NCBI GenBank assembly: GCA_050084515.1
Contig: CM114271.1
Location: 48,608,001 to 48,672,000 of the forward strand
Origin: Blasia pusilla
Lineage: Eukaryota
DNA length: 64,000 nucleotides
Direction of reading: 5' to 3'
Under the pieces are notes generated by a model. That model searched no databases and was not told the origin of the DNA. It saw only the letters and a program-made list of their open reading frames with translations. A program made the translations under genes and the position numbers. Shown here one piece after another: positions 352 through 64,000 of this stretch. How positions within the stretch are numbered: position 1 is the stretch's first letter; each line of letters begins with the position of its first letter.

Positions 352-605
352 GGTACTACTCTATACACATCTAGCATTGTGGGTGGTGTCATCCCTCCAA
401 TATCTCCCAATACATGCTTGTCCGCTGATCCATCTGATCTATCTCCACCTAGAGATATTGATGTATCTAGATGTCATCTTGCAACACTGCAACTACCCGC
501 AGTATTAATTCCTCTAAAGAGATCCAACACTCTTGCACCCTCCTCCAGACAGTGCCACACAACATGTGTGGTATCCAAAGACATCAAGTCTCCACTCCAA
601 ATGCA
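352..605 (-). mobile_element. Inverted fragment of a deleted DNMT-Gypsy derivative (methyltransferase motifs I-II joined to the 3' end of pol)
   Basis: Reverse complement reads VVWHCLEEGARVLDLFRGINT and aligns with 10866-11030. It then reaches tgctagatgtgtatagagtagta, which resembles 15218-15240. Confidence 0.7.
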
Positions 606-607
606 TG

Positions 608-1077
608 ACTATGTCACATCTTATTTCGACGTAGGTAGAGTTCTATCACGTCGACAACATAGAGCGTCAATAGGTTGTTCGGTTGTAACTTTGTTCCGAG
701 ATGTCGGATGAGGTTAGCAACATGTCTGTTGTGTTGCGAACGTCATTTATTGTGATTTACCTATTTTGGTTTAGTCCGTCAGGTGACCCGTAGACCGAGT
801 CAATGGTCACCCGATAACTTGTGCACGCAGGTTACTGTTGGTAGGGCTATTTTTGGCTCTTTCCAAAAGGTATAAGAGGGAGGAAGATGGCTTTCCCAAG
901 CCATCTTTCTCATGTTGGGCCGTTGGAGCACCTCTCTTGTTGTGTGTGAGATAGGACGAGGGTGCTAGCATCTGGATTTCCTGAGAGCACAGGGTGGACG
1001 AGGCTTGATTTGCCGATGTAGATTCATGAGTGGAGTTTTAAGCTGGATGTGCCATTTTTACTACTCTTTATTTTACA
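608..1077 (+). repeat. Partial LTR (3' portion) of the Gypsy group
   Basis: Closely matches 21008-21452 (cacatcttatttcgacgtaggtagag ... ctactctttatttt) and ends in ...ttttaCA. Confidence 0.7.
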
Positions 1078-4500: not shown

Positions 4501-5835
4501 AGAGGATACAGGGTATCACATTCTGCTAGACTTTGGACCTCCAGACGGCTATCTAAGACGCTTACAATCCGAAATTAGAGGGAGGAAGTTCCATAGTATC
4601 GACATGATTTGGGACCGCACAGGCAGGGATTTGGAGGCTGCTTTGTTGTTTCAGAAGAGTTATTCTGAGAGTTTTTGTATAGCGCTACAAGATAGATTTA
4701 GAGACAATAATCTTATGGGTGCAATGAAAATCCTGAACCCCTTACACATGCCTTCTAGACAAGTAGGACTCGTAAGTTGGGGATGTAAGGAAATAGAAGA
4801 GTTGTGTGCATATTTTGGATCCGAGTTACCATTGAAGGGGCATTTGCAACCTTCTGTCATAAATTCTGCTGTTGTCAAGCAAGAATTTCAGTCCTTCAAG
4901 TTGATGGCAACAACTGAGTGGAAGGACCGTAACTTCAGGGATCTATCGGCAACGGTGAGTTGGAGTCCATCTTTACAATGTAAGTTTGGAAACTTGCTGG
5001 TGTTGGCCAATGTCGCAAGGGTTCAATGTGTAAGCACTGCAATTTGTGAGAGAGCATTCTCAATTCAGAACATGATAAAGACCAAGTGTAGGAATAGACT
5101 AGGTAGTAAACATTTGGATGATGTTCTCAGAATTGCCTTAGAAGGCCCTACTGTTGATTATGAGGACATGCTTGCTAAATCTGTAGTTCTCTGGAAAACC
5201 TCTGCTAGCTTTAGATACCTGTACGCTAATCCAGAAAGATATCTCTGCCTTCAAGCAAAAGCTGATGATACACCTTCGATTGACTTGTCTTCCTGAAATA
5301 ATCTTTGCATTTTGTTGTAGACTTAGAGCCCCTTCATAATACTTCGAAGTTTGAGATGCCCAAGTATTATAAAGGGGCAAAATCCTTGGCTCCCAACTGG
5401 TTGAGAGGCATGGCCAGGTTCAACTCCTGCCAAGGATTCCTTGAATGTGTATTTTAGTTCTGAAGGTTTAGTTTAGAGGGTAATACTTAAAGGGAGAAGT
5501 CATGAAAAAAAAAGATTGGGAAAGAAGGAGAGTTTTTTTTACCGGTAGTTTTCAAATCAGCCGATTATTGGCCAGACTATTTTTCGGATTTCCAGATAAA
5601 GAACCGCGTAAAATTATAAATATCGGATTTTATCGGACTGAAAAAAAATTACTCTTATTTTTACTCCTCTTTTTAAATCTAAACGGCCACAGCCAAAGAT
5701 CTGTTTTAAAAATCCGAACTGATTTAATATTATCTGGATATTATATGAATAAATTAAAAAAACTCCCCGGACCTTGCCCCAAACTCACATGCATAGGGCC
5801 AGCCCTTGCATGTGAGTTCGGGGTTAGGAAGGCTG
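1593..5835 (+). mobile_element. hAT-superfamily DNA transposon
   Basis: Imperfect 21-bp terminal inverted repeats: tagcctccctaaccccaaact (1593-1613) versus reverse complement cagccttcctaaccccgaact (5815-5835). They flank a hAT transposase. No intact 8-bp TSD (gagcaaag vs cgccatag). Confidence 0.7.
3065..5296 (+). pseudogene. hAT transposase (ZNF862/C17orf113-like) with two in-frame stops
   Basis: N-terminal CxxC..H..H zinc finger (HCKIC), IDESTD, GSDGAS, HCVAH (CxxH), IRWLS and CERAFS motifs. The three ORFs share one frame, broken by TAA at 3863-3865 and TGA at 4169-4171. Confidence 0.9.
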
Positions 5836-5874
5836 CGCCATAGGGACGCAAGTGGTTCCTGTCATAAGGAAAGA

Positions 5875-7287
5875 TGTCGTGCGCATACATATCGCTACAC
5901 AACATACATCGCTCGTCACATCTACACCACACAACACCGATCTTCCCCACAGACGGTGTCGTGTCGAGAGTCTTTCTTCGAGCAAGGGCGGGCCTTCTAG
6001 CTGCGGTAGATGCGGTCGATGCAAGGTGAACTCTCTAATAAGTTCTCCTTTTTCAATACAAAATTATGATGTACACTCTCCATTCTCTCACGACAGGTAT
6101 CACAAATGGAAGTGCCGAGGCGATCACTTCTTCGTAACATCGGACCCCGAAATTCCTAACTATAAAATCCCTATAAACTATTTTACGTTTATACACGAGG
6201 AAGATAGCACAACTAGTGTTAAACCCTACTTGACCAGGCCTATTGACATCCATGGATCGCTATATAAGGACATACAAAGTACAATCCCATGTCCTTCCAT
6301 ATGTGACGATAGGAAGAATCACCGGAGTTGGAGATTGCATGACCTGATTCATGAACGCCTCCCCAAAGTGATAAACTAAATAGCGAGTGAACCAGTGCCT
6401 ATCTACAAAGAGTACCTTGACATGGTAAGGATTGAGGAAAGGAAAGTCGGGCACAGCTCGTGCTCCACCCTTATCCATGCTTGACACACATTCTCTACTC
6501 TCCTCAAGAATGGGTTTTGGCGGAGTTATTCTCCCAAGAGGGGTAATCCACTCTCATTGGGGAAGTAACAAGCCAAAACATCAACTATTTTTGTATGACT
6601 AAACTCCTCTACGGTGACAAACCTCTCATCCCCACACACACACACCACACTCTAGAAATCTCTCATAGAATAGACCATAGTCAAGTTACTCTCCCAAGAG
6701 GGGTAATCCACTCTCATTGGAAGAGCAAGCAATCCCAAAGCCATACACTCAAGAGAGACACGAGAGACTCAAGATGTGGAATAGAAGATGATGAACCCTT
6801 GAAGGTCCCTCCTCTTTATATACTCACAAGGGATCCACAAGAGTACGAAATAGAGCTTATCTTATCTTGTGCCACATGGCTTCCTCTCAAGGCTTAGCCA
6901 ATCATATTTTGAGACAAGTAGATTTTCTCTTATCTCTTCCAAAATATCCTCTTTTACCCACATGATATTTTCCAAATTACCCCAACTAACCTAGCCACCA
7001 ACCAAGATTACTTTTGTTTTTCATTAAAGCAACTACTTTACTTTTATAAAGTCATCTTTTATTTATTACCTCCTTTTCCTAAAGTTGGGCCCGCATAAAA
7101 GAGGCACCATAAAGAGGTTTAAACATAAGAATTTTGTTTTTCTAAGCCAATTTACTTAATACTAATGAAACTCTATCTAACACTTAATGACAAAGGAGTT
7201 TACACATTGGTTGATTTTACTATACGATAACGGGTCGATCCACACATGTACAAAAATAAACTCATACATATACATGGAGATCACACA
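5875..7287 (-). repeat. Inverted copy of the first ~136 bp of the DNMT-Gypsy LTR, split by a solo-LTR insertion
   Basis: 5875-5956 plus 7230-7287 form the reverse complement of 15309-15444, with about 3 mismatches. Confidence 0.85.
5957..7229. mobile_element. Solo LTR (~1.27 kb) of an unrelated family
   Basis: Termini TGTCGT...ACGATA (ACGACA expected). The site acgg is duplicated at 5953-5956 and 7230-7233, and the insertion cleanly interrupts the repeat above. It has an internal direct repeat ctcccaagaggggtaatccactctcattgg at about 6530 and 6690. Confidence 0.75.
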
Positions 7288-8054
7288 ACTCAGCTAAGGA
7301 GTGGGGAGTGTGCGCACGGATCAAGGAAGTACTTGGCAGGTCCAAGGAAGTGGGGTGGAGTGAAGGTGCATAGGGCACCGTGCAAAGAAGGAACCTAGTA
7401 GAGTTGGGACAGAGTAAGCCCAGTTACCAGGTTGGGAGGCGGATGTGGTGGAACTGCTTACGTAGTTGGGAAAGCTGAGTTACGCCAAGAGTTTGCAACG
7501 GGATGTTGCTGATGGAGTATGAGTATGATGAGGCCGATGGGTGGTCTATATCTATTGACGGGGGGTTTGACGTGTGTTCAAGGAGGGTGTCATTTTACGG
7601 AGGTTGCTGTACCACATGGAGGAGTGAGTGCTGACGATACAGCAGGTTGGAGGGCGTGATCAGGTTACCCATTCGAGTCCCTTTTCCCGCACTTGTCGTG
7701 TGTGATTGAGAGTGCTGGGTATCGGGTAGTAGCTGGTGCTAGATGGGTGCAGTGATGGTGACGAGTGTAGATTCTTTTCATGTGTAGCATGTTGGTGGAT
7801 ATCTGGCGGTTGCCGAGTAGGGGTCGCGTGTATGACCCGAGAGTGTGTCGCTAGGTTAGGTGAGTGTTGGGGAGGCTCATGGTGAGCCCGAGTGTTGAGC
7901 GTCGTGAGGCCGGGTATGTCATCACGGGATTGACGTTAGCATAGGTGAGCTAGTGAGGCGTGTGGGAGACTCTCGGTGAGTCTGAGTGCTTGAGTGGGTG
8001 AGACAGGGTTTGTCATCACGGCGTTCTTCCAGGGTTCGGAAGAACGGGGTAGTG

Positions 8055-9500
8055 CGAGCAGTAGTAGTGGTGGTGTGACATGCAGTGGAGTAAGATACCG
8101 AGGGGTTACCAGTGAGGAGCTCTCGCGATATCCATCCGTGACTGGATCATCATCATCGACACGGTCCGAGTGACGAGATCACCGATGAGACAGAGATGAG
8201 TACTTGGCGGTGAGATGGACGACATGGGCCATCGGGGCATGCGTCGTTTCTCGGGTGCAGTGGGCACCATCGACTAAGATGATTTCATCCAAGAGTTCGA
8301 CACATGGTGCGACTTCCAGGAGATACGAACCCCGACACGGTTCAACCTTTCATGGCATGGAAGGGGTTGTTCCAGCACTTGGAGGGTCCTCCAATGGATG
8401 ACTACATGGAGTTTTGATCACTATATTCAGTAGAGATCGATACCTGGAGGATGTATTGGGCTCCAGGGTATGTGTCCACTAGTGGTCGCGAGGCATATGA
8501 TGGGATTGTGAGAGGAGAGAGACCCACACCATCAGCCCGGAGACTAGATGGAGAGGAGGACAGTGACATAGGCGATGTGGTAGAGACCTCTGGTGGTAGA
8601 GGGCCACCCAGCTTCAGCCTCACAGTGGAGTTCTTCCGACAGTTGGGGAAGAGCTATCAGGGCGTACGCACCGACAAGCTGAAGAGTCTACAGGATTTTC
8701 AGCGACAATCGGGTGAGAGTCTGAGAGAGGCCTACACATGCATGAGGAGGCTGATTATTGCTACGTTTGGAGTGAGTGAGGCGCACTCAGTCCAGTATTG
8801 GTACGGGGTTCTGGACCGAGAACTACGGAGGAGAGTCCGAGATGGAGTGCTGATTCACACAACGAAGCCCACATTGAAGGTGGTCTTTGAGTTGTCTGAG
8901 CGTATTGAGCTCAACATGAGTGAGGAGCAGGTAGTGACCGCTGGATTTTCTCGAGAGTCGACGGGTCCACGAGCGGCGGTGACCCCACCGGTGCCACAGC
9001 GAGCACCAGTACCACGGGAGCGGGCCAGTGTGCCTAGAGAGCAGGGCGTGTACCGTGAGCCTATGAGGCAACGACCCGCACCTACATATTTTGCCCAGCA
9101 GGGACCGATATGGTCTTGTTGGACGTGTGGAGGGGCCCATAGGCGAGAGAGCGCCCACAAAGATGGGAGAGGACCACGGCGCCTCCGATTGCGCGCAGAC
9201 CCACAGAGGATGGCCCTCACTCATAAGACCGGTGTGACCATTGCCACGTAAATGGTCACACTAGGGATAGATGTTTTGACCTTCGCCGAGGGGCACGTCA
9301 GGTAGGCCGAGGGCCTGGGGCGGCCGCCCCGGGAGGAGGTGGGGAGTTCTTCCGGGCGTGGTGGTAGAGGACCACCACCGGCCGAGGAGATGGAGCAGAG
9401 CACCGAGCCGGGCGCTTCTCTCACACGATCGATCGGGTTGAGCAGAGGATTGCCGCCATGACGATGATGCGGCTTAGGAAGGCACGGAGCTGCGAGCAGC
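8055..9500 (+). pseudogene. gag: gag, frameshifted, with two zinc knuckles
   Basis: Capsid-like FQRQSGESLREAY segment, CWTCGGAH knuckle near 9117, and CDHCHVNGHTRDRC near 9233-9275. Start is approximate, inferred from the second copy (ATG near 18115). Confidence 0.8.
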
Positions 9501-10099
9501 TAGTGTGACTCCAGTCTCTACCTCTTACCCTGACCCGGGTGAGGATCTCTCCAATATGGGATTCATGTGTAGTGGAGCCCAGGTTGAGGCAGCTGGAGTG
9601 GTGACTCGGGGTGCTGCGAGAGGCATCGAGCCATCGAGAGGTGGAGTTGAGATTGACCCACAAGAGGGGACCGATGGGCGGCAGGCCAGGGTTCCACAAT
9701 CGTTCACATTGTCGGAGGCACTACACACACCATCGATGGTGCCTCGACGACCAGCGGTGCCTACAGATCAGGCACCTACGTCGACGTCACAAGGAGTTGG
9801 AGTGACAACTCCTATGCCGGCTCGGGTGGATTCAATGTCGACTATAGTGTTGGAGGTGGCCACTAGAGTGAGTCAGACTCCGCTATTTTCCGCCTTAGAG
9901 TTGGCGATGTTGGGAGTTGGACCAGCTTGAGGTGTTCCGGTTGGCCGCCACGTTGTGTGAGCGTGGAGAGATGACTGCTTCTTGTTCAGAGGTAGTTGAG
10001 GAGATGGTGGACTTGTCCTCAGAGCCGTTGCTTGGAAGGTTCCCCACAGAGTCATGGCATGCGGCGGCGGCAAAGTTGGTAGATATGCCAGCTCGACCG

Positions 10100-10560
10100 G
10101 CCATAGAGCGAGCAGTGGTGACACCTGGAGTAGTGTTACTGGATAACCGAGCTGGAGTATTTCACTTGGTTAGTCCGACGGGGATAGTATACCACCCGCA
10201 GCGCGTCCTACTTGATTCGGGAGCGCAACCCTTGATGTTAGGGAAGGCGGCGTGTTTAGCGTTGGGGTTATGGAAGGCCGACATTGAGCCTTGTCCCTTC
10301 CAGATAAAGACCTCGATTGGGGGCGTATCACCCACTCAGTATATGACTCGACAGGAGATTGTTGTGAGAGTTCAGCCAGAGCATGCGACGGATAGTGCTA
10401 TGGTGCGTACACATGCAATTACGACACCAGCTGAGTACGATGTGTTGGTGGGGAGTACAGTGTTATATCCCCTAGGATTCATCCTTGACTTATGGGAGGA
10501 GACCGTTGCTTATCGGCCAGGATGGCGGTCAGGTGACGGTCGGATGAGTCAATTACCCGT
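10100..10560 (+). pseudogene. Retropepsin aspartic protease domain
   Basis: VLLDSGAQPLML active site near 10205-10240 and YDVLVG downstream motif. Confidence 0.9.
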
Positions 10561-10930
10561 GCAGTTTGCGGGACGAGATAGTCGATCACGAGGCGAATGT
10601 GTGACCACGTTGGCGGCTTTCACAGGTAGTGTTAGCTGGCCAGGAGAGTTGTTGGAGGGGAACGCACATGCGGAGGATGTCCCAGTAGCGGATAGTCCCA
10701 CGGAGAGATTGGCCATGACGGGTGTCTCTTCCCATGTTAGCGATGCCTCTTCACCATTATGGGGTACGACTCGAGAGCTACAGAGGAGTGTCGACGACCT
10801 CGTGAGGCAGGTGTGGAGTCATGTTTTTATCCCAGAGCAGCGAGAGTCACGTGGCGATCGGGCTCTTGGAGTGGAGACGATGACCCCACTAGATACCACA
10901 CCGGTTGTGTGGCAGTGCCCAGAGGAGGGT

Positions 10931-11880
10931 GTTAGGGTGTTAGATCTCTTTGGAGGGATTAGCACCGGATTGGCTGCAGTATTGCAGGCGGGCATACGGG
11001 TGCATCAGTACCTTTATGTGGAGAGAGATGAGACCGCGCGGCGAGTATCATTACGTCACATGGCGAGATTGGTCTAGAGGTATCCTGAGTTGTTGTCGGT
11101 ATCTGCAGTACGGGGATACCAGCATATGCTACCCGTCGACATATCTTTGTGGGGGCGCAGAATCTGGATAGAGTTGGCACCATTCATTTGGTGATTGCTG
11201 GATGGCCATGTCAGGGTCATTCATCTGCTGGCCGAGGATTTGGATTGCAGGATCCGAGGTCAGGGATGTTTTGGGAGATGCTGCGAGTAGTACGACACTT
11301 GCAGCAGAGTCAGATATGTTCTCCTGCTAACATTTTGGAGAACGTGCCGTTGTTGGGAGATACTCGTGCACGTGTGATGATGAGTGTACATCAGGTGAGG
11401 TCCTGGTGGGGACAGGCTGTGTTGTTAGATGCAGCGAGAGTTGGGTCACGTGCCCATTGTCCACGACTGTCGTGGACGAACTTGATACCATCAGAGGTAC
11501 TGAGTCGAGCCTACAGTGGAGTCCAGAGAGCACCACATGTCACGGTGGATGTTATTTTGGACTCAGGGCGTCGATCTCAAGTGGTGACACGCGATGATAG
11601 ACCACCGTTGGCCATGGCCAATAGGGTGGGGGAGTTGAGGGCAGCCTTACCTACGTTGGTGAGCTTCCCAGCATCCCATGCCTTTCGTCAAGGAGGGCCA
11701 GGCATGATTTGGGATGAGGTGACCGGAGTATTGGAGGAGCCTACAGCAGATGAGCGCGAGCGCGCCATGGGGTTCACTACCGGTACTACGGCGGTGCCAG
11801 GGATGACTGAGGCATCACGGAGACAGGTGTTGGGGCAGGCAATGGACCTCTACTGTCTCACATGGATAGTCGGCCTAGGT
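10931..11880 (+). pseudogene. DNMT3-like C5-cytosine DNA methyltransferase domain within the Gypsy pol region
   Basis: Ordered motifs: I VRVLDLFGGISTG, II YLYVERD, IV LVIAGWPCQGHS, VI ILENV, VIII SRAHCPRLSWTNL, IX ERERAMGF, X RRQVLGQAMD. One TAG at 11075-11077 and one frameshift near 11150. Confidence 0.93.
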
Positions 11881-12289
11881 ATGGTGAAAGCAGAGACGGA
11901 TGATGAGTGTCATCCATGCCGTCACGCCCACGAAGTTGGACCACCTTGCCCTGTGGTCAGACATGCATTGGTCGGGGCGAGACGAGGAGAGATAGGCACC
12001 CATGGACTTCCTGGGACGTCGTTCGAGCAGAGAGTGCGAAGGCGGCTAGAGTAGCACATGTTCATTTTTTGGATGTGGAGCATGGTGTAGGAGGTCAGAG
12101 TGGAGTGGCTGTTGCGGAGGTGGCTAGGGTTGCTACATAGCAACCAAAGCCAGAGGTTGCGTCCTCTCCGAGTGAGGTCACGATGGAGACTTGGGAGCAT
12201 GTGATAGGTCTCAAGTTGATAGGAGTAGAGCGACGGCGAGTTCATAGGTTTCTAAGAGGGCATGTCAGTTGTTTTTCCTTCAGTATGAG

Positions 12290-13000
12290 AGACTTAGGTA
12301 CGCTGAAGGGTCCCGCGATACGGATTGAGTTGGCTAGTGATACGCCGATCTTTCGTCGACCCTACAGGTATTCTGATATGGAACGAGCCTTGATTGAGAG
12401 CAGGTGTCAGGACTTTGGAGACAGGACTTGTGGAGTTGTCACATGGGGAGTATGCATCTGCCACAGTCATGCCGGCAAAGAAGGATATGTATGGCAATTG
12501 GACGAATAGGCGGATGTGTGGAGATTACCGTCCTATCAACCCTGCAGACGAGGTCGATCGGTATGCCATGGTTACTCTGAGGAGATCTTTGATGCGGTAG
12601 GGCATGCAAAGATCTTGATTTTTAGATCTCCCGTCTTTGGCTATCATCGCCTTCCTATCAAAGTTGGAGGACAAGGAGAAGACAACATTCTCGGGGATAG
12701 ATCGGTTTGGGAGAGATTGCTTGTATCGGTGGCGGTTCTTACCATTTGGGTTGAAGAACGCGCTGCAGAGTTTCGTAGAGTGATGGATAGGATTATGGTG
12801 GCTTGGATTTTTGTGCGATGTTACATAGATGATATTCTTATCTTGATTCCACGGTTGAGGAGCATGAGCGACACTTGGAGGAGGTGTTTGGCGATTGCGA
12901 TTACATGGACCAAGTTACATCCAGCAAGTGCAGATTCTTTCAGAGCAGATTGAGTACTTGGGACACACCATATACCCGAGTGGGTTAGGCGTTCAGCAGA
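12290..13000 (+). pseudogene. Gypsy reverse transcriptase with multiple frameshifts
   Basis: PIFRRPYRY, RMCGDYRPIN, LPFGLKN and CYIDDIL (about 12819-12840), followed by IEYLGH. Confidence 0.93.
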
Positions 13001-13204
13001 CGAAGGTAGAGGCTATTGCGCAGATTCCACGCCCCTACAGATGTGAGTCGAGTCCGAGCATTTCTTGGACAGGCGAACTTCTATCGACGGTTTGTCAAGG
13101 GTTTTAGTGCGATCGCAAAGTCTTTGACCTTGTTGACGAGACTTGATCAGGTGTGGTTGTGGGGAGATGATCAGGAGCGAGCATTTTAGGAGCTCAAGGA
13201 CAGG

Positions 13205-13615
13205 TTGACGTCCTCACCCATTTTACAGAGACCGGTTAGGGGTCGCCCATTCCAGTTACATACGGATTGGAGCATGTTGGGTCTAGGAGCAGTGCTTACT
13301 CAGAGGGATGACGAGGAGAGGGAGTTTGTTGTGGCTTACGCGAGTCGATCGAACAACATTGCAGAGGCGAAGTACATCTCCTACGAGGGAGAGTGCTTGG
13401 CTGCAGTGTGGGCGGTGGCACATTTTAGGTGCTATTTATTTGGCAACCCTTTCACACTTATCACTGATCATCAGCCGTTGAAGTGGTTGATGGAGTCCGA
13501 CAAGCTTACGGGAAAGCTTGCCAGGTGGGCTCTATTACTACAGGAGTATGAGTTTGAGGTGGTTCATAGGCCAGGTCGGCTGAACCAGGATGCGGATGGG
13601 TTGAGTCGTAACCCA
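13205..13615 (+). pseudogene. Gypsy RNase H domain
   Basis: FQLHTDWS, LGAVLTQ, VAYASRS, ECLAAVWAV, ITDHQPL, LARWALLLQEY and NQDADGLSR. Confidence 0.93.
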
Positions 13616-13999
13616 TGTCCGAGTCAGAGAGACGTCACGGGAGCTCGATGGCACGGAGAGAGTGATGAGGAGATGGTGCCCGGTTGGCATGCATCTACCT
13701 ATCTTTGTTGGTTGACTATGGGTGTCACCCACAGCGATGACTCCAGTGGTGGGGTTGGATGATGAGTCTTTGGATCCGGAGGTTAGTGAGGAGGCGACAG
13801 GTGGTCGTGATATCCATGACGATGTGGAGGTTGTGGACTTCTTGCGCACTGGCGTCATTGCGAGTACAGTGAGTGCTAGGGAGCGGGATCGGATCCTACA
13901 GAGAGCCAAGAGGTTCACGTGGGAGGGGACTCACATTTTGCGGGTATGGGGAGATGGTAGGATACGAGTGGTACCTCATCCTTCCCAAATGAGCACGTA

Positions 14000-15040
14000 G
14001 TGCGACATGCCCATGAGGAGTTGGGACATTTCGAGTAAAGCGATTTACGACTTACTCCATGTTCGTGATTGGTGGCGCGTCATGCATACCTTGGGGTATA
14101 GCGATTTGGGCGATATATGGTATGTAACAGAGTGCGAGCATCCTTCAATGCTCCCACTCCGCAGTTACATCCTTTGCCGATTATGGGTTTAGGTTATCGG
14201 TGGAGTTTAGACTTTGCGGGACCTTTGCCATTGACAGGGCGTCATCATAGGTACGTGTTAGTCATGGTGGAGCATTTCTCCAAGTGGATAGAGTTGGTGG
14301 CACTACCGAGACAAAGCAGCGAGGGAACAAATTTTATGCGTTTCTAGATCGTGTGCTTAGTCACTTTGGTGCACCGGCGGAGGTGTTGACTGACCAGGGT
14401 ACCGAGTTCAGGGGAGAGTTTCAGGCCTTGTGTGATCAGGCGCTGATAGATCACCGCACCACGTCCAGGGATCATTGGATTGGCGGAGAGAGCGGTACAG
14501 ACGGTGAAGAGAGGATTGCGCAAGTATGGCTTGCAGCGGGGAAAGTTGAGGGAGTGGGACCTACAATTGCCATGGTTGGCTATGGGTTATCGCTTTAGTC
14601 GGCAGGCATCCTTGGCGTCATTTTCACCGTACTTTTTGCTCTTTGGGAGAGAGCCAAATTTACCTGCAGCAATTCGACGTGACATGGCGGAGGTGTTAGA
14701 TCTTGATGATCCAGATGTGTGGGTGCAAGCATGTTCTCAGAGGGCAGAAGTTTGTCGTAGAGTTATGCCTATGGCCTTTGAGAACTTAGCTATTGCCCAA
14801 CATAGAGATACATTGAGGTACGCGACCATTCGTGGAGGAGGTTATTGTCCAGGGATTAGGAGGTTTCATCCCGGAGATTACGTGTATTTACAGCAGGCGA
14901 CATCCACGACGCTAGATGTCACTGCAGGGCGCACTATCCTACGTGTGTGCGAGGTATTACCGACCGGAGTCCTCATGTTGGAGGGACGAGATGGTATGGT
15001 TTGGAAGGATCATGTGCGCAATTGTGCGCCATGTCATCTT
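14000..15040 (+). pseudogene. Gypsy DDE integrase
   Basis: H..H..CxxC remnant, WSLDFAGPLP, EHFSKW, LTDQGTEF, GLAERAVQTVK and FSPYFLLFGR, with frameshifts. Confidence 0.93.
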
Positions 15041-15094
15041 CCGAACATAGATGGGACGGTGGATCCAAGCTTGGCGTGGTACTGCAGCTTGAGG

Positions 15095-15233
15095 TGTATG
15101 TTGTGCGGATCTGCGAGGGGTGGCCACCATGTTGGTATGTGATGGTTGTTCTCGAGGGTGGCATATGTCATGTCCTGACCCCCTCTTGATGTGGTTCCCA
15201 CGGGGACGATGGATGTGTGCGAGATGTGTATAG
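15095..15233 (+). pseudogene. PHD finger at the integrase C-terminus
   Basis: Across two frameshifts it reads CMLC...MLVCDGCSRGWHMSCLTPPLDVVP..RWMCARC, a C4-H-C3 pattern. Confidence 0.85.
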
Positions 15234-16115
15234 GGTAGTAGGTCATGTCGAGAGATGTGATATTTTCTATCTCGGAGTTAGGGGATCCAACCGCCACTAG
15301 GGGGCGGTTGTGTGATCTCCATGTATATGTATGAGTTTATTTTTGTACATGTGTGGATCGACCCGTGTGTGGGGAAGATCGGTGTTGTGTGGTATAGATG
15401 TGACAAGCGATGTATGTTGTGTAGCGATATGTATGCGCACGACAACTGTCACATCTGAGTAGCCGATAGGCCGAGATCTATCGTGGATAGGGCGTAGGAG
15501 CCAGCCGACTATCTTGAGTGTAACTTTGTCCCACAGTGTCGGATGAGGTTGAGGATAGGTCCATTGTGTCAGGAACGTCGTTTATGACGACTTTTATGTT
15601 GAGGTCTTTTACATCCGGGTGACTTGTTGACCAGGTCACCAGCCGGAGAAGCAGGGTTACTCAAGCATAAGGAGATACAGTTAATGAGGGGTGAAGTGCC
15701 GGAAGCAGCGAAGCTGAGGTGGGGGATGCGGTTGCATAGGGCGTCGTGCCCTCGGACGGAGTATAGGAAGGGAGTGACGGGTTTAGGAGTGGTATGGATA
15801 GTAGGGTCGGGCTACGTGGTGAGACGAGACGGGTTGGGACGGATGTGGTAAGGGTTGAATGTGGTGAGCAGCTACATGGTTGGTAGACCACCACAGATGT
15901 AGTTAGACATGGACTATAGTAGGAAGTTGGTAACTATGGTTGTTGAGATACATGGTTGATTCATGCTATGTAGTTGAAACGTTTTTCGAGAGACTTGATG
16001 TATTCGCAAGCTAGCGTGGTGAGATTCACGATGAGCGTGGCTAGTACTTTGTTGACTGGGGGCGGGACGAATGATCCACATCGATAGTCTACGACAGATT
16101 GGTAGTATGTCGATG

Positions 16116-17599: not shown

Positions 17600-20500
17600 A
17601 ACGGGAAGTTTGCATGACGAGAGGTTTGACATGAGGTCGAGGAGAGTGTTGTGTTGTGGAGGTGTCATACCACATGGAGGAGTGAGTGTTGACGGTGCAC
17701 TAGATTAATGGTTGGCATGATCAGGTTATCCATTCGAGTCCCTTTTCCCGCACTTGTCTTGTATGATTGAGAGTGTTGGGTATCGGGTAGTTGTTCATGG
17801 TAGATGGGTGTAGTGATGGTGATAAGTGTAGACTCCTTTTATGTGTATCATGTTGGTGGATATACGACGGTTTCTGAGTAGGGATCGTGTGTATGACCTG
17901 AGAGTATGTCAGTAGTTTAGGTGAGTTAGTGGGAGGCTCATGGTGAGCTCGAGTGTTGAGTGTGCGTGAGGCTAGGTGTGTCATCACGGGATCCACATTA
18001 GCGTAGGTGAGCTAGTGAGGAGTGTGGGAGACTCTCGGTGAGTCTGAGTGCTTGAGCGGGTAAGACAGGGTTGTCATCACGGCGTTCTTCCAAGGTTTGG
18101 AAGAACGGGGTAGTATGAGCAGTAATAGTGGTGTGACACGGAGTGGTGTGAGGTTTCGAGAGGTTTTGAGCAAGGAACCACCCCGACTCCCATCAGTGGT
18201 TGGATCGTCATCACTAGATAGTGGGTCTGGTGATGAGATTGTAACCGGGACGGTGATACGTGGAGAAAGATGGACGGCATGGGCCATTGGGGCATGCATC
18301 GTTTCTCGGGTGCGGTAGGCACCATAGATTTAGATGACTTACTCCAAGAGTTCGACACGTAAGATACGGATCCCTACACAGTTCAACCCTTTTATGGCAT
18401 GGAAGGGGTTGTTCCAGCACTTGGAGGGTCCGCTGATGGATGACTACATGGAGTTTCGATCTTTATACTCTATAGAGATCGATGCCTAGAGGGTGTATTG
18501 GGCTCCAAGGTATGTGTCCACTAATGGCCGCAAGGCGTATAATGGGATAGTGAGAGCAGAGAGACCTTCACCATCAGCCCGAGGACTAGATGGAGCGGAT
18601 GGTAGTGAGAGTGGTGAGGTGGTAGAGACCTCTCATGGTAGAGGACCACCGAGTTTCAATCCTACAATGGAGTTCTTCTAACAGTTGGGGAGGAGCTACC
18701 AGGGCGTGCGGACCGACAGGTTGAAGAGTCTACAAGATTTTCAGCGGAGATCAAGTGAGAGTCTGAGGGAGGCGTTCATGCACATGCGATGGCTCATCAT
18801 TGCCACATATGGGGTGATTGAGGCACAATCAATGTAGTAATGGTACGGGGTGCTAGATGAGGAGCTACATAGGAGAGTTGGGGATGCGATGTTGCTTCAC
18901 ACGGCAAAGCCCACATTGAAGGTGGTCTTCGAGTTGTCTAAGCGGGTATAGCTCAACATGAGTGAGGAGAAGGTGGTGACCACGGGATTTTTACGGGATT
19001 TGACGGGTTGACGAGTAGGAGTAGACCCACAAGTGTCCTAACATGCACCATTACCACGGGAGCGGGTCGATGGGCCCAAAGAGCAGAGCGGGTATCGTGA
19101 GCCGATGAGGCAACAACCCGTATCGACATATGTTTCCCAGCAAGGACCAGGGTTGGCTTGTTGGACGTGTGGTGGGTCACATAGGCAGAGGGACTGCCCA
19201 CCACATGGGAGAGGGTCACGGACGCCTCCGATTCCTCAGGAACCATAGAGGACCACGACCACATGGTCCACCACAGTTGCTGTGTGAGCATTGTCACCGA
19301 TATGGTCACACTAGGGATAGGTGTTACGATCTTTGCCGGGAGGTACGTCCAGAGGTAGGCAGAGGACTTGGGGGCAAGAGAGTTGGTGGAGATCGAGTGG
19401 TGGATGATCGTGGTGGTAGAGTGCCGTCGCTTGTCATAAGAGATGGAGGACATGCACCTGATGCAACGCTCCTACGCGCGTCAATCAGTTGGAGCAGAGG
19501 ATTGTTGCCATGACGATGATGTAGTTGCAGGCAAGCGCAGAGCTGAGAGTGGCAAGTGTGGTGCTAGCCTCCATATCTTACCATAATGCTAGTGAGGATT
19601 TTGCGGGGATGGGATTTATGTGTAGTGCGGCTTAGGTTAAGGCTAGTGCGGTGGTGATTCAGGGTGCTACGAGAGTAACCAAGCCATCAAGAGGTGGGGT
19701 CGAGATTGACCCACAGGAGGGGACCGATGGGCGGGTTCCCCAGTCGTTCATATTTTTGGAGGCACTTCATACACCGTCGATGGTGCCTCGACGACCGGTA
19801 GTACCCACGGATGGGACAAGTGCCTCGACGTCACGAGGAGTTGGAGAGACAACTCCTATGTCGGCTTGGGAGGAGCCAATGTCGACCATGTTGTTGGAGG
19901 TGGCCACTAGGGTCAGCCATGCTCCATTGTTTTCTGCCATGGAGTTGGCGACATTGGGAGTTGGACCAGTGAAGGTGTTCCGGCTGGCCGCCACATTGTG
20001 TGAGCGTGGAGAGGTGACTGCCTCTTGTTCAGAGGTAATTGAGGAGGTGGTGGACTTGCCCTCGGAGCATGTGCTCGGGACGTTTCCCACTCAATCATGG
20101 CATGTTGCGGCGGCAAAGTTGGTAGATATGCCAGCTAGGCCAACGATAGAGCGAGCTATAATCACACTAGGTGTTGTGTTGTTGGATAACCGAGCAGGTG
20201 TTTTTTGCTTGGTTAGTTCCACATGTACGGTGTACCACTCACTGTGCGTCTTACTTGATTCAAGAGTGCAACCCTTGATGTTAGGGAAGGCGGAGTGTTT
20301 GGCGTTGGGTTTACGGAAAGGCGACGTTGAGCGTTGTCCCTTTCAGAAATTTTCATATCGGCCAGGGTGGCCATCAGGTGATGGATAGGTGAGCCATCTA
20401 CCGGTGCACTTTGCAAGAGTTGGCGGTGGTCGACCACGTGAGGATGCGGTGACCACGTTCGCAGCATTCACAAGTGGTGTTCGCTGATGAGGAGGGTTTG

Positions 20501-21452
20501 GGGAGAGGAGCACACATTTGGAGGATATTCCTGTAGCGGATAGTCCCACGGAGAGACATGCCAGGGTGGGTGTCTCTTCCCATGGTGCAAAGCTTCTTTA
20601 TTGTTTTCGGGGATGAGCGTTTTGATGCGTGGAATGCAGACGAGCTTGTGAGGCATGTGCGGAGCAGTGTCTATGTTTGGAGCAGGGTATGAGAGTGTTA
20701 GATCTCTTCAGAGGGATCAACACCATGGTTTGCTATAGTGTGGCGTTGTTGCGAGGATGATGGCACTGATGGTGCTAGATGTGTACATGATAAGAGATCT
20801 TGTTGGGGACATATGTGTGTGCTATCTAGAGTTAAGGGGACCCAACTGCGAGGTAGGGGGGCGGTTGTGGGGTTCCAATGTATATGCGTGAGTATGTTTC
20901 ATTTATGTGTGGATCGACCCATATGTTGGGGAAGATCAGTGTTGTGTGGTATATAGATGTGACCAGCGATGTGGGTTGTGTAGCGATGTGTATGCGCATG
21001 ACAACTATCACATCTTATTTTGACGTAGGTAGAGTTCTATCGCGTTGACGACGTAGAGCGTCAACGTGCTGTTCGGGTGTAACTTCGTCCCGAGATGTCG
21101 GATGAGGTTGGCAACAGGTCTGTTGGGTCGGGAACATTGTTTATGGCAATTTCCCTATTTTGGTTTTAGTCCGTCAGGGGATCCGTTGACCGAGTCAACG
21201 GTCACCCGATAACTTGTGCACGCAGGTTATCGTTGGTAGGGCTATTTTTGGGGGAAGAGCCTTTTGGCTCTTTCCAAGCCATCTTTCTCATGTTGGGTTG
21301 TTGGAGCACCTCTCTTGTTGTGTGTGAGATAGGACGAGGGTGATAGCGTCTAGATTTCGTGAGAGCACAGGATGGACGAGGCTTGATATGCCGATGAAGA
21401 TTCACGAGTGGAGTTTTAGGCTACGTGTGCCGTTTTTACTACTCTTTATTTT
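17600..21452 (+). mobile_element. Second, internally deleted non-autonomous copy of the DNMT-Gypsy group
   Basis: 17610-20345 is colinear with 7555-10303 (leader, gag, protease; many stops). It keeps only DNMT motif I (GMRVLDLFRGINT, about 20686-20725), then jumps to the 3' UTR, PPT (about 20855-20865) and LTR (20866-21452). Confidence 0.88.
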
Positions 21453-21454
21453 GT

Positions 21455-21600
21455 TGTGGGGTCCCAGTGTATATGCATGAGTATGTTTCATTTATGTGTG
21501 GATCTATCCGTATGTTGGAGAAGATCGGTGTTGTGTGGTATGTAGACATGACCAGCGATGCGGGTTCTGTAACGATGTGTATGCGCACGACAACTATCAT
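21455..21600 (+). repeat. Additional LTR 5' segment in tandem after the LTR
   Basis: Diverged repeat of 20866-21010. Confidence 0.8.
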
Positions 21601-21609
21601 CTGACTATG

Positions 21610-22040
21610 TCTGCTCCAAGACACAAGCATTCCTCCACGCGTGCTTCACGAGCTTGTCGAACTCCTATGCAAATCAATGCTCGTACCCAAAATGGTAAAG
21701 AGGCCTCTACACCATGAGAATAGACACCCACCTTGGCATGTCTCTCCGTGGGACTATCCGCTACCAAGATGTCCTCCGCATGGGTGCTAGTGCTCCTCTC
21801 CAACAACTCTCCTCACCAAATAATCACTACGTGTGAATGGTGCCAACATGATCACGACATCACCTCGTGAACCACCACTACGCCTTGCAAACCGCACAAG
21901 TAAATAACTCACTCTTCCATCACGTGATCGCCATCCTAGCTGATAAGAAACCGCCTCCTCCTAGAAATCAAGGATGAAACCCAGGGGGTACAACATCGTA
22001 CTCCCTGCCAACATATCATACGGCTCTATTGATGTAGTAA
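21610..22040 (-). mobile_element. Inverted degenerate fragment of the protease-DNMT linker
   Basis: Reverse complement encodes HAEDILVADSPTERHAKVG and matches about 10430-10820. Confidence 0.75.
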
Positions 22041-59273: not shown

Positions 59274-60545
59274 TCTCAAAGGTGTACATTCTCTCTCATG
59301 TCAAACCAAACCCACTCTCCTAATGAGAGGTTTGGGTTACATTCACAAGACAAGGGACCATAGCTCTTCCGCCTCATGCCAAGAGGTTCAACAAAGAGAG
59401 AATGAGCTCTCAAGCTCTCTTTCCTTGAGGTATACCACTCCCCTCTCCCAAACTCTCTCCATGGTAACATATTCTCCCAAGTCACCTTCTTGGCTCTGGA
59501 CTTGATGTAGGAGGTCAAGGGTCATTTACCAAAAATAGAAGGTCGATCATATACTCAAACTGGAACTTGCCTAAAATAATTACCGCTCCTAGGAAACCTG
59601 AGAGAGCAGGTTTCCCCTTTGTTTCGGCTGTGGCGTATCGGGCTCCAAATGAGCCGAAACGAAGGGGAAACCTGCTCTCTCAGGTTTCCTAGGGCCTCAA
59701 CAGATCATCCTCGACCTACTGAGTCTCTCCTCTACTACTCACGAAGGCGTTCTACTACATCTCACCGATCTATCCTAAAAGACGTGATAGGTGTCGTGCA
59801 CATATACATCGCTACACAACATACATCGTTGTCATCGAATACACAAACACACACGATCCCATGCTAACTCATGGCATCCATACACTGAGGCAAGAAGTAC
59901 CAAAATATCTCCAATTAAAGTAAGATCCAAGCTCTCTCTACACCATCTCACACCATAGCTCTCAAAGGTGTGCACTCTCTCTCATTTCAAACAAAACCCA
60001 CTCTTCTAATGAGAGGCTTGAGTTACACTCACAAGGCAAGGGACCATAGTTCCGCTGCCTCATGCCAAGAGGTTTAACAAAAAGAGAATGAGCTCTCAAG
60101 CTCTCTCTCCTTGAGGTATACCCCTCCCCTCTCCCAATCTCTCTCCACGGTAACCTATGCTCCCAAGTACCTCCTTGGCTATTGACCTGATGTAGGAGAT
60201 CAAGGGCCACTTACCAAAAATATAAAGTGAACTATCCCCAACATGGAAACTTACCCAAAATAGTAAGTTTCTCTATATGGCTCAAAATGAGCCGAAACGA
60301 AGGGAAAACCTGCTCTCTCAGGTTTCCCGGGGCCTCAACATGTCATTCTCAAACTCTTGGGCATGTCCTCCACTACTCGTGAAGACGCTCTGCTAGATCC
60401 CACCGATCTATCATAACAGTCGTGACATCATACACATCGCTACACAACATACATTGTTGTCACCAAACACACACACAAACACGCACAATCTCATGCTAAC
60501 TCATGGCATCCAAACAAAAAGACAAGAAGTACTAAAATATCTCCA
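59274..60545 (-). repeat. Two tandem LTR copies (59274-59913 and about 59916-60545)
   Basis: Both run tctcaaaggtg...aaaatatctcca and share the catcgctacacaacatacat core with the other LTRs of the group. The PPT (reverse complement ggggggcgat) abuts 60545. Confidence 0.85.
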
Positions 60546-63500
60546 ATCGCCCCCCTAGCTGGTGGTTAGGTCCCTCTAACTCCGGATAGCCATCTATCCC
60601 TACCTACCACGACATACATCTCTAGGACGCTAAGAGCATAAAGGCCGGGTGCTCATGTGGCCCCATCGTTAGTCGCCTTCCTGTCATCCATGTCATGGAA
60701 AAGTTTGGAATCGAAATCTACCTAGTATCTCCTCTATATACGTCCGGGACACATCCATCGTCCCCGAGGAACCCTAGTGAGAGGTGGCGTCAGACATACC
60801 ATTTGCCAACCTCTCGAACATCCATCACAGACTAGCATCGTGGCTGCACTACGGGTAGAACCACACAACATACAACGCAAGCCTGCAAGAACTACGTTGA
60901 ACAACATACAACGTATGAGCCTGCATGAATAGTCGCATACCTCAACATATCACGATGTTACGCAATCGCCAAGTTCTCGAGCGCCATGGGCATCACTCTC
61001 CGAAACAACTCAACCCTCTGAGAACATGTTCGCATCCATACATCTGGGTCATCGAGGTCCAGCACCTCATCAGCATCTCGACGAATGGCCGCCGGTAAAT
61101 CTGGCTCTCGGCCATAAAGTAGCAAGTACGGTGAAAAAGACGCTAAGGATGTCTGCCTGCTGAATCTGTATCCCATCGCCAACCATGGCAACTGGAGGTC
61201 CCAATCTCCTAGGTGACCTCTCTGCAAGCCATACTTGCGTAAATCCCTCTTCACCGTCTGCATAACTCTCTCCGCTAATCCATCCGCCTCGGGATGATCT
61301 CGCAAAGTCGTGCGGTGGCCGATCACACTTGATCACACAAGGCTTGGAACTCACCGCAAAAGTCGGTACCCTGGTCTGTCAAAACCTCAGTCGGTGCGCC
61401 ATAATGACTCAGCACTATGTCAAGGAAGGCATAAGCTACTCCCTCATTTGCTTTGTCAGCAATGCAACCAACTCGATCCACTTCGAGAAGTGCTCGATCA
61501 TCACCAACACATAACGATTGTGACGCTTTGTCAAAGGCAAAGGTCCTGCAAAATCCAAACTCCATCTATATCCTATCCCAATAAGCTTGTCGGACTTCAT
61601 CAACCACTTAAGTGGTTGATGATCAGTGATGATGGTAAAGGGGTTGCCAAATAAGTTACACTTGAAATGCGTGACAGCCCACACCACGACCAAGCACTCA
61701 CCCTCATACAAGTTGTACTTCACCTCTGAAATACAGTGTTGTTCGAGCGGCTAGCGTAAGCCACCATCAACTCTCGACCCTCATCATCATGTTGGGTGAG
61801 CACCGCTCCAAGCCCCAAAATGCTCCAATCTGTGTTTAATTGGAAAGGACGCCTCCTGATCGGTCTCCTCAAGATGGGCGCCGACGTCAATCTGTCCTTG
61901 AGCAACTAAAATGCTCTCTCCAGCTCATCCCCCCAGTGCCACTCGTGATCCACCTTGGTCAGAAAGGTTAGCGGCTTTGCAATCGAACTGAATTCCTTGA
62001 CGTTCTACCAATAGAAGTTTGCCAATCCCATGAATGCGCGAACACGGCTCATATCTGTAGGGCATAAAATGCGTGAGATAGCCTTTACCTTCGTCTGCTA
62101 GACACCAAGGTCCCCTGGGTATATCGTATGACCCAAGTACTCAATCTGGTCATAGAATAACTTGCACTTGCCTGGATATAGCTTCAGCCCATGTAATTGC
62201 AATCGTCGAAACACCTCCTCTAGATGTCGATCATGCTCCTCAACCGTGGCGCTAAACTCTACGATATCATCAATATAACACCTAGCAAAATCCAGACCAA
62301 CCAATATCCTATCCATGACCCTCTGGAACTCAGCCGGGGTGTTCTTTAACCCAAATGGTAAGAACCGCCACTAGTACAAACAATCCTTCCAGTGAGGATC
62401 GATGCCCCAAAATGTCGTCTTCTGCCTGTCCTCCAATCTGATAGGTAGCTGATGGTATCCGGCTCGCAAATCAAATGAACTGAAGACCTTTGCATGACCA
62501 ATCGCATCAAAGATCTCCTCAGGGGTGGGCATGGCATACCCATCGTGTCGCGACCCTCATGACCAAACAAGTGCCAAGCGGAACATCGGAACATTAGCGG
62601 GCTCACGCTAAGATGGTTTGCGCGTTGGAGTTGTCTCAAAGAGGAGACAAGAGATGAGACGCGAGCGAGGAGTCGCGTTTCAGATGTTATGGTCGCGATT
62701 GAGAAACCTGGACCAAACACGGAATGAGACTTGAAAGAAGTCGAGTCTAGGAAGTGGGTTGCCAAAGGAAAGATCCGGATTTGGAACGCCACTAGCGTTT
62801 GAGAGTTTCCGACTGTATTTATGGCCATAACTTTTATCTCCAAGATGCGTTTGGAACAAATAAGGATGCGTTGGAAAGCCTATGGAGAGCCAATCCAAAC
62901 GCATTAAAGATCGCTCCAAACGCATAAGCAGCGGCTGAGAAACAACCCAAAAACGATTGTAAGTGGAGTCGGGTTGAGGGCCACAATGAAGGGCCCGACC
63001 CTCTTTTCCCAAAGGGGAGGGGTTATTGGAGAACCCCAGAAGTACTAGTAAGGGGGAAGGTCTCCGAGAGTGCTTGGAACCCAAACCCCACTTTGGGCGC
63101 CGCGAGGCGGCTCAAGGGCATGGAACGAACGCGAGTTTGGGGGTTGGGTTGGAAAACCTGCACCAAGTCCATTAAAGGGATTTTAGACATCCCTCTTGGA
63201 TTCCACCCCGCGACTCAATTACTTGGGTCTCGGTTCGGAACTCACCCGAGAACCGTTGAACAGTTGGGATCGCTAGGCGCGCAAGTGCCGTTTCAGATCC
63301 CTGGACTAACCAGGAAGTCTGTTCCAAGTCTTGAAGGACTTGCCATGTGTTGGAAACTAGGAACTAAGGAAGGTTGAGCTTGATGAGACGCCAAGTTGAG
63401 GACCCGGTGGGTTGGAACGCTGGTTGGCCCAGACCCGACTAACGAGAGTGCGTGTTTGGGTGCAGATCGGCGATGAGTTCGTGACCTACTGAACGTATGT

Positions 63501-64000
63501 TTCCGCAACACTAAAGATTGACATTCAAGGAGAGTAGGGGCGCGACACATCGGACTTCGTCTGCCGATTGATGGGTCGGTAATCTCCACACATCCGCCTA
63601 TCCGTCCAGTTGCCATGCACATCCTTCTTGGCGGGCATGACTATGTCAGATGCATACTCCCCATGCGACATCTCCACTAGTCTTGCTCCGACCAAGTCCT
63701 GGCTCCTACTCGGAATTAGTGCCCTCTCCATATCACTATACCTGTAGGGTCGTCGGAAGATCGGCGTATCACTCAACAACTCAATGCAGATCCTCGGTCC
63801 CTTTGGCGTACCCAAATCCTCCATTCTAAACGCAAAGCAGCTCCTATAAACCAGAGGAACTCATATATTCGGCGCCGCTCTCCTCCTATCAACTTAGGGC
63901 CCATATCTGGCTTCCAAGTCTCCATCGTGACTACGGTAGGACTCTCCTGCGCGGATATTGGTTGTTGCTATGGTGCAACCCCATTTCGAACAACGACACT
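60546..64000 (-). mobile_element. Third Gypsy copy (RT-RH-IN-PHD portion), degenerate, running off the window end
   Basis: PIFRRPYRYSDMER, RMCGDYRPIN, CYIDDIV, FQLNTDWS, WSLDFAGPLP, ADGLAERV, and a PHD remnant CMLC..MLVCDGCSRGW at about 60740-60875. An internal deletion near 61580 fuses RNase H to the integrase core. Confidence 0.9.
62546..63547. mobile_element. Solo LTR, 1002 bp (family copy 2), inserted in the RT of the third Gypsy copy
   Basis: Termini TGTCGCG...CGCGACA and a perfect TSD CATCG (62541-62545 and 63548-63552). The RT frame resumes on both sides. Confidence 0.93.

Follow-up and report, generated by a model that had tools for sequence, protein, structure and literature searches.

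A decayed Ty3/Gypsy-type retrotransposon with a DNMT3-like cytosine methyltransferase domain and a PHD-finger remnant, from a lineage found in liverworts and mosses

The 64,000-nucleotide stretch of Blasia pusilla DNA analysed here (the window) almost certainly holds a decayed Ty3/Gypsy-type copy, named copy B, composed of gag, protease, a DNMT3-like C5 methyltransferase, reverse transcriptase (RT), RNase H, a DDE integrase and a PHD finger, in which the methyltransferase is a long-standing constituent of a lineage spanning liverworts and mosses and, more distantly, Closterium and green algae, and whose complete relatives end in an A-coding-B-A-B arrangement, the layout published for KnitGypsy-Dnmt3 of Klebsormidium nitens. 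Gypsy elements with a DNMT3 domain have been known as a kind since 2018; what is added here is the bryophyte host range and the PHD finger. Taken together as the best explanation, this identity of copy B and the pre-methylation mechanism proposed below are likely to be right.

Copy B occupies 7556..15586 on the + strand and is near full-length. Its similarity to copy C, an internally deleted sister in the same window, begins at 7556 on the 5' side, and its last portion (15212-15586) matches the 3' region of copy C. A gag-like region (8215..9283) contains a CCHC-type knuckle, CWTCGG (9117-9134), and shows 51-60% identity to residues 1-350 of the Marchantia protein P0118. It is followed by the protease region (9496..10900) with the active site LLDSGAQ (10208-10228), which was placed by tblastn to P0118 and P0122; the Pfam search returned no protease match on the window ORF itself, and the relative P0190 carries Asp_protease_2 at the corresponding place. 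The broken methyltransferase domain comes next (10922..11925, Pfam PF00145), with 66-69% identity to Marchantia proteins. RT follows at 12150..13035, with YIDDIL at 12822-12839 (tblastn to P0122 and P0152), then RNase H at about 13034..13762, seen both by tblastn and by a Pfam RT_RNaseH match on ORF 13190-13762 (E 2.1e-35). The DDE-type integrase, at about 13773..15173, is 44% identical to P0152 over 321 residues and 59% identical over 361 residues to the integrase ORF of the metagenome locus L070. Two window ORFs give Pfam rve scores of 22.8 and 26.9 bits, under the cut-off of 32.6, and the integrase to which the region is 59% identical passes that cut-off; the relatives' integrases combine rve with an Integrase_H2C2 zinc domain, which is the DDE type. 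In L070 a PHD finger stands after the integrase (Pfam PHD, 34.2 bits, cut-off 24). Comparison with that finger reveals PHD remnants in copy B, at the integrase C-terminus (15102..15230, 51% identity over 43 residues), and in a further window copy, copy E. The B-type terminal repeat of copy B (15307..15461) is 79% identical to 21453-21607 of copy C. Hence protease, RT, RNase H and a DDE integrase lie in the Ty3/Gypsy order, as the initial annotation had proposed in calling the element Gypsy-type. When gag to integrase was mapped by tblastn with the relatives' polyproteins, the frame changed at least nine times from one matched piece to the next, and copy B is therefore decayed throughout.

The methyltransferase domain is distributed over two ORFs of the + strand. 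ORF 9899-11077 contains the protease site LLDSGAQ and, near its end, motif I VRVLDLFGGISTGL (10931-10972) followed by YLYVERDE (11009-11032), so that motifs I and II share a reading frame with the protease, as had been noticed initially. ORF 11089-12054 holds motif IV LVIAGWPCQGHS (11188-11223, catalytic Cys codon 11209-11211), motif VI ILENVP (11332-11349), motif VIII GSRAHCPRLSWTNL (11443-11484), motif IX ADERERAMGF (11746-11775) and motif X RRQVLGQAMD (11818-11847). The series I, II, IV, VI, VIII, IX and X is thus found in order, at 10931-11847, in agreement with the earlier reading. The Pfam check which that reading had called for gives a DNA_methylase (PF00145) match on ORF 11089-12054 with E 7.8e-9 and 35.8 bits over a cut-off of 22, and since the best homologues of the window ORF reach E values down to 1e-104, this match is not due to chance. 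The five motif strings quoted in the initial annotation (IRVLSLFDGI and others) are absent from the window; they are the wording of DNMT3A and are seen in the aligned DNMT3A chains.

The suspicion that this copy is inactive proved well founded. An in-frame TAG stop lies between motifs II and IV (11075..11077, from the ORF listing and translation), beyond which the homologous reading (RYPELL...LPVDISL) is kept as far as 11149. A frame change follows within 11146..11155, where tblastn matches in frame 2, reaching 11155/11224, overlap those in frame 1, which start at 11146; the translation confirms it. In motif VIII a Cys codon (11458..11460) stands at a position occupied by Arg in 290 of 311 aligned domains of the family and by Cys in five. 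The window domain thus has neither an uninterrupted frame nor the conserved motif VIII Arg, and because of the stop, the frame change and the Arg-to-Cys replacement the window copy is, as read from its sequence, a pseudogene unable to make the enzyme.

When window and Marchantia are compared, the methyltransferase is the best conserved part, with 68.5% identity versus 44-64% for the other parts. Residue counts were taken from 373 domain matches across 349 proteins. Of 282 aligned domains, 281 have the catalytic Cys, and 299 of 310 have the Glu of ENV. In 104 of 282 a Glu stands in place of the Pro of the Pro-Cys motif, so a large share of the wider family may differ in catalysis; Pro is retained in the window and in its bryophyte relatives. 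Among metagenome methyltransferase stretches, 2 out of 39 are free of stops and frameshifts. Pairwise Nei-Gojobori estimates were made for nine metagenome stretches with at most two stops and for the window part after the frameshift. Seven close copies show dN/dS of 0.41-0.93 at dS 0.06-0.31. The ratio falls to 0.09-0.13 for the window against eight loci and to 0.15-0.21 for locus L026 against seven loci, values which are rough because dS is saturated there (1.7-3.1); nine pairs involving locus L040 were too saturated for a ratio. Purifying selection has also been described for the Klebsormidium elements (PMC5890265). The dN/dS values of the present family form the usual transposon pattern, in which the active lineage is constrained and individual insertions decay neutrally.

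As to function, we propose by analogy that in intact copies the enzyme would be made within Pol and travel with RT and integrase. It would methylate cytosines de novo, most likely in CG context, on the new cDNA or at the new insertion, and the new copy would then enter the genome already bearing a self-like mark. The PHD finger of the integrase would probably read the state of histone tails and steer insertion. We infer here the catalytic activity, its substrate, its sequence context and the benefit to the element, and we hold this mechanism to be a little short of an even chance. Pre-methylation of cDNA is a hypothesis already published by de Mendoza et al. 2018 (PMC5890265). In the same work the SymbioDIRS-Dnmt3 domain of Symbiodinium produced CG methylation in yeast, and the Klebsormidium domain, the sole Gypsy-borne enzyme tested, produced none, an outcome its authors do not take as decisive. 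The missing methylation is in keeping with a different role, which we consider unlikely but the most serious of the alternatives: the domain might serve self-restraint, with methylation keeping copy number tolerable, which is one option raised by de Mendoza et al. (PMC5890265), or might act with the PHD finger as a DNA- or chromatin-binding module, with no pre-methylation aiding spread. The Glu in motif IV of the 104 domains counted above and the presence of a PHD reader on the integrase point the same way. However, human DNMT3B failed in the same yeast test (PMC5890265), and more than 93% of aligned domains keep the catalytic Cys, the ENV motif and the arginines of motif VIII, which would be superfluous for a pure binding module.

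The class of the domain was examined with a family profile, since a PDB search with one sequence had been too weak and equivocal to settle this point. The profile was built from 28 aligned family sequences and matched 59 PDB sequences at E <= 1. The best 29 of these 59 are all DNMT3A, DNMT3B or DNMT3C (E 5.6e-24 to 4.8e-18), followed by DRM (1.7e-11 to 5.5e-10), M.HhaI/HaeIII (from 4e-7) and DNMT2 (from 3e-5), and there is no DNMT1 or chromomethylase chain among the 59. An AlphaFold2 model was made for the relative P0001, whose identity to the window ORF is 69% (pLDDT 88.5, pTM 0.88). In a Foldseek search with this model the rows listed down to rank 50 are all DNMT3A/B/C, with target TM values of 0.78-0.84 for catalytic-domain chains. 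Furthermore, the motif order is canonical, motif I lying ahead of IV-X, and DRM chains align only over the C-terminal half. Judged against solved structures only, profile and predicted fold support the assignment of the domain METHYLTRANSFERASE as DNMT3-like and unpermuted, and on this point the earlier reading, which had set it apart from the permuted DRM type, holds. Host DNMT3 enzymes (mammalian DNMT3A/B/C and plant DNMT3 with DUF3444) offer the best match in sequence and fold, with agreement in the wording of motifs I, IV, VI, VIII, IX and X. The element domain differs from them in lacking PWWP, ADD or DUF3444 partners, in sitting within a retroelement polyprotein and in having a longer motif VIII-IX stretch with a conserved wording of its own, ALPTLVS.

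Capture of the methyltransferase from a bacterium or virus, with mere resemblance to DNMT3, is by comparison very improbable. The single-sequence PDB search does rank M.HhaI first (E 0.0019), through motif IV alone, but the profile puts DNMT3A/B/C 12 orders of magnitude ahead of DRM and at least 16 ahead of M.HhaI over motifs I-VIII and IX-X, and the fold search lists DNMT3 chains only down to rank 50. One relative, P0030, carries the label of an Obscuribacterales genome bin; in the tree described below it is tightly grouped with the 1330-residue polyprotein P0130, and for this reason it is probably a mis-binned eukaryote contig. A feature search of a protein atlas returned generic methylase clusters only, with phage methylase clusters scoring equal to the streptophyte cluster.

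The DNMT3-like domain of copy B has numerous relatives. With the window ORF as query, 115 hits of similar length and 72 longer hits were obtained. The named rows belong to Marchantia polymorpha, M. paleacea, Riccia sorocarpa, Calypogeia fissa and three Sphagnum species, with Closterium more distant. M. polymorpha contributes 24 rows, which stand for fewer loci because they come from three annotation series. An exhaustive profile search collected 15284 proteins at E <= 0.001, and 611 representatives of 50%-identity clusters at E <= 1e-30; of 20 clusters looked up, three bore an organism name, Scenedesmus sp. PABB004 in one case and Closterium in two. A further profile search with at least 46 hits includes Haematococcus and, weakly, Symbiodinium kawagutii (P0205, E 5e-7). 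No seed-plant name occurs among the matches listed, which is weak evidence of absence. Neither do Klebsormidium-named rows occur among the 115 and 72 hits of the window ORF, the profile hits listed (at least 46) or the 20 clusters, three of them named, so kinship to the Klebsormidium family is drawn from architecture only. A tree was computed from 48 rows picked by hand out of about 350 proteins and 80 loci. The window domain falls inside a 25-row clade (SH-aLRT 98) that takes in all 17 named liverwort and moss rows, which fits the land-plant host suggested at first. It lies near the base of this clade, outside Marchantia and Sphagnum, and Closterium and the green algae lie outside the clade. 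The position points most likely to a bryophyte host belonging to neither genus.

The architecture is shared as well. Marchantia P0118 joins gag, protease and methyltransferase in a single protein, Marchantia P0122 joins protease, methyltransferase, RT and RNase H, and P0190 shows CCHC at 517, protease at 784, the methyltransferase at 966, RVT at 1412, RNase H at 1629 and integrase at 1885-2051. At L070 a single frame spans gag through the methyltransferase. Gene models from Marchantia, Calypogeia, Sphagnum and Closterium repeat the order gag, protease, methyltransferase, RT, RNase H, integrase, as do dozens of further contigs. This recurrence of order and frame in the relatives' polyproteins supports the methyltransferase as a heritable, long-standing part of the element lineage and not a neighbouring host gene, as the initial annotation had argued. 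The window is a pile of nested, rearranged transposon pieces, in which a host DNMT3 gene or retrocopy could have come by chance to lie inside one Gypsy copy, but since order and frame recur across several named genera and dozens of contigs, and since motifs I-II are in one ORF with the protease, such nesting has a negligible probability and, barring artefactual records, is refuted by the P0118, P0122 and P0190 polyproteins and the single frame of L070.

Regarding the ends of the element, repeat searches within the window found no direct LTR pair, the Ty3/Gypsy hallmark, for the window copies, and neither a 5' A-type repeat nor an LTR at copies B and C. Four of 11 long metagenome loci (L070, L054, L005 and L036) have their coding region between two A repeats, and in L070 and L054 short B repeats flank the second A, giving A-coding-B-A-B. 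In L070, A1 (6000-6336) precedes gag, which begins at 7490, and the integrase runs to 14464, followed by B1 (14634-14748), A2 (14753-15089) and B2 (15089-15203). This DIRS-like arrangement is complete in relatives and represented in the window only by the B-A-B of copy C, in which B1 (20864-21010), A (21010-21452) and B2 (21453-21599) follow one another and B1 and B2 are 90% identical over 147 bases. A tyrosine recombinase, which is characteristic of DIRS elements, was not seen in the relatives, where rve and Integrase_H2C2 are found instead.

Copy C (17615..21607, + strand) retains gag, protease and a motif I remnant ahead of this B-A-B and shares 78% identity with copy B across 2785 bases. 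The remnant (20680-20724) is 45 bases long, reads RVLDLFRGINT and then jumps to the 3' region of the element, the stretch equivalent to 10966-15212 of copy B being missing. A motif I-II fragment of another copy lies inverted at 433..600 (- strand), with 74% identity over 169 bases to 10866-11033. Hence motif I is present in sister copies, as initially claimed, but as this 45-base remnant and a 169-base minus-strand match it is thinner there than had been implied. Next to the fragment, an A-type repeat of another copy (603..1074, + strand) is 84% identical over 475 bases to 20996-21452, and an inverted protease-region fragment at 21602..22021 (- strand) is 74% identical over 423 bases to 10435-10849. 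Copy E (59274..63916, - strand, by tblastn) comprises RT, RNase H, integrase, the PHD remnant (60895-60746) and a 3' tandem repeat (59274-59915 and 59960-60547, 77% identical over 647 bases); its methyltransferase part would fall past the end of the window. The window as a whole is rich in transposons, nested and rearranged: besides a hAT element, a Helitron and one more reverse transcriptase, it contains the methyltransferase-bearing family in several copies. Pfam searches on 20 further window ORFs returned transposon domains only (hAT, Helitron, Pif1, RVT_1). A multi-exon HslU-like gene is located at about 39.1-41.6 kb.

Retrotransposons bearing a DNMT were described in the alga Klebsormidium and the dinoflagellate Symbiodinium by de Mendoza et al. 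2018 (PMC5890265), and two later papers citing that work speak of 'streptophytes'. KnitGypsy-Dnmt3 of K. nitens shares with the present family an unpermuted, intron-less DNMT3-type domain in the Pol ORF, Gypsy domain content, DIRS-type A-coding-B-A-B repeats and signs of purifying selection on the DNMT (PMC5890265). The two are likened by architecture, not by sequence, and differ in host, a charophyte alga there and a liverwort/moss clade here, and in the PHD finger after the integrase, of which the main text of the 2018 paper makes no mention (PMC5890265). SymbioDIRS-Dnmt3 likewise has a DNMT3-type domain in Pol and a split-repeat layout, but it uses a tyrosine recombinase, whereas the family described here has a DDE integrase (rve) with an H2C2 zinc domain. 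Chromoviruses, which are Gypsy elements with a chromodomain on the integrase, also place a histone-reader module at the integrase C-terminus; the present family has a PHD finger in place of the chromodomain and carries a DNA methyltransferase in addition. EpiLTRs (bioRxiv 10.64898/2026.05.21.726589) are LTR-type elements uniting a DNMT with a chromatin reader. As they are described there, their DNMT is sister to DNMT4 and, together with a Dam adenine methylase and a chromodomain, occupies the 3' end of pol, in contrast to the DNMT3-like domain between protease and RT of copy B.

In the literature consulted we found no account of retrotransposons with a DNMT from any land plant, liverworts and mosses included, although the supplements of PMC5890265 and PMC12344493 may list cases. 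The words methyltransferase, methylase and Marchantia are all absent from Neumann et al. 2019, and nothing relevant was found in the literature seen on PHD fingers at integrase C-termini. The suggestion that such elements are new to land plants therefore stands in so far as no describing paper was found, but the family is already present, uncharacterised, in the annotations of Marchantia polymorpha, Calypogeia, Riccia and Sphagnum and shares the Klebsormidium repeat layout.

We also looked at transcripts. Reads of three RNA-seq runs (X19, X20 and X21) carrying the same species label as the best-matching DNA runs were aligned to 7500-16000. Fitting reads numbered 227 among about 10.1 million records in X19, 215 among about 12.0 million in X20 and 249 among about 11.1 million in X21; they are mostly 95-99% alike, and 47, 45 and 50 respectively are at least 99% alike. 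Between 59 and 71% of the aligned RNA pieces continue into unlike sequence, and most reads consequently come from sibling copies and are uninformative on copy B. In nearly all of them the first mate is on the minus strand, which in the usual stranded library corresponds to sense RNA. Twelve reads of X20 and nine of X21 fit only 11186-11220, across motif IV, with flanks that, read by eye in frame, are open and family-like on both sides; hence a sibling methyltransferase copy is transcribed. In the DNA run X1, 3505 short pieces cover 29 of 30 bins, as for a repeated family, with a depth that is not a copy number.

What a retrotransposon gains from its own de novo DNA methyltransferase has been a question since 2018. 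Should the database matches be a fair guide to how common the family is in liverworts and mosses, this question moves into plants, since in liverworts and mosses genetics is well developed, methylomes have been published and the host DNMT3, DRM, CMT and MET enzymes are known. In a methylome paper Marchantia is said to have five DNA methyltransferases (PMC5784723); its annotations hold many more PF00145 models than five, and counts of bryophyte methyltransferase genes include transposon copies. The broadest reading, that a Gypsy lineage equipped with both a DNMT3 writer and a PHD reader has survived from green algae into land plants, is still transcribed in bryophytes, methylates new cDNA or insertion sites and contributes to land-plant methylomes, is speculative and on balance doubtful. 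If true, such a persistent lineage uniting writer and reader would be testable in the tractable liverwort Marchantia.

Upstream of copy B, the decayed Gypsy-type retroelement that carries the DNMT3-like domain, the B-type repeat is represented by two fragments in inverted orientation, at 7230-7289 and 5869-5961, about 1.27 kb apart, both identified by their similarity to 15307-15450. One of these inverted pieces matches 15307-15366 with 100% identity over 60 bases, while copy B overall is old. This exact match could be due to recent conversion, to a rearrangement or to an assembly effect. Furthermore, fragments of the element adjoin its repeats nearly base to base at two places: at junction 600/603 a minus-strand motif I-II fragment meets a plus-strand A repeat, and at junction 21599/21602 a minus-strand protease-region fragment meets a plus-strand B repeat. 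These junctions are a hint that recombination took place in the element's terminal repeats.

In each of the three RNA runs, 40-49 reads match the 32-base stretch at 14000-14031 and nowhere else along themselves, and continue on both sides into unrelated sequence. This short stretch also occurs in an abundant unrelated transcript.

The sole clear host gene seen in the window is an HslU-like AAA ATPase gene on the plus strand, with exons at about 39100-41564. In the ORF translations, a Walker A (15 residues) and a Walker B (10 residues) motif can be made out by eye. Other transposons are also present, namely a hAT-type element at 2945-5296, in which a C17orf113 zinc finger is accompanied by a hAT dimerisation domain that scores under its cut-off, a Helitron at 29985-35592, with Helitron_like_N and Pif1 2B domains, and a separate reverse transcriptase (RVT_1) at 46803-47822.

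Among the relatives of the window's DNMT domain, the protein P0030 displays 50% identity to it, and its label gives a Candidatus Obscuribacterales genome bin as its origin. Its source is probably a mis-binned eukaryote contig, because the tree clusters P0030 with P0130, a retroelement polyprotein of 1330 residues.

The catalytic Pro-Cys pair was compared across the family in an alignment of 373 domains. The Cys is conserved in 281 of 282 domains, and Glu stands in place of the Pro in 104 of the 282, as exemplified by GWECQG in Closterium. Two further relatives differ in the domains that accompany the methylase. P0202 has both PF00145 and PF05869, the latter a Dam adenine methylase domain, and in P0181 the DNMT is joined to a PHD finger and PF12237, followed by C-terminal residues that look RNase H-like on inspection by eye. 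Both proteins are alternative architectures built round the same methylase.
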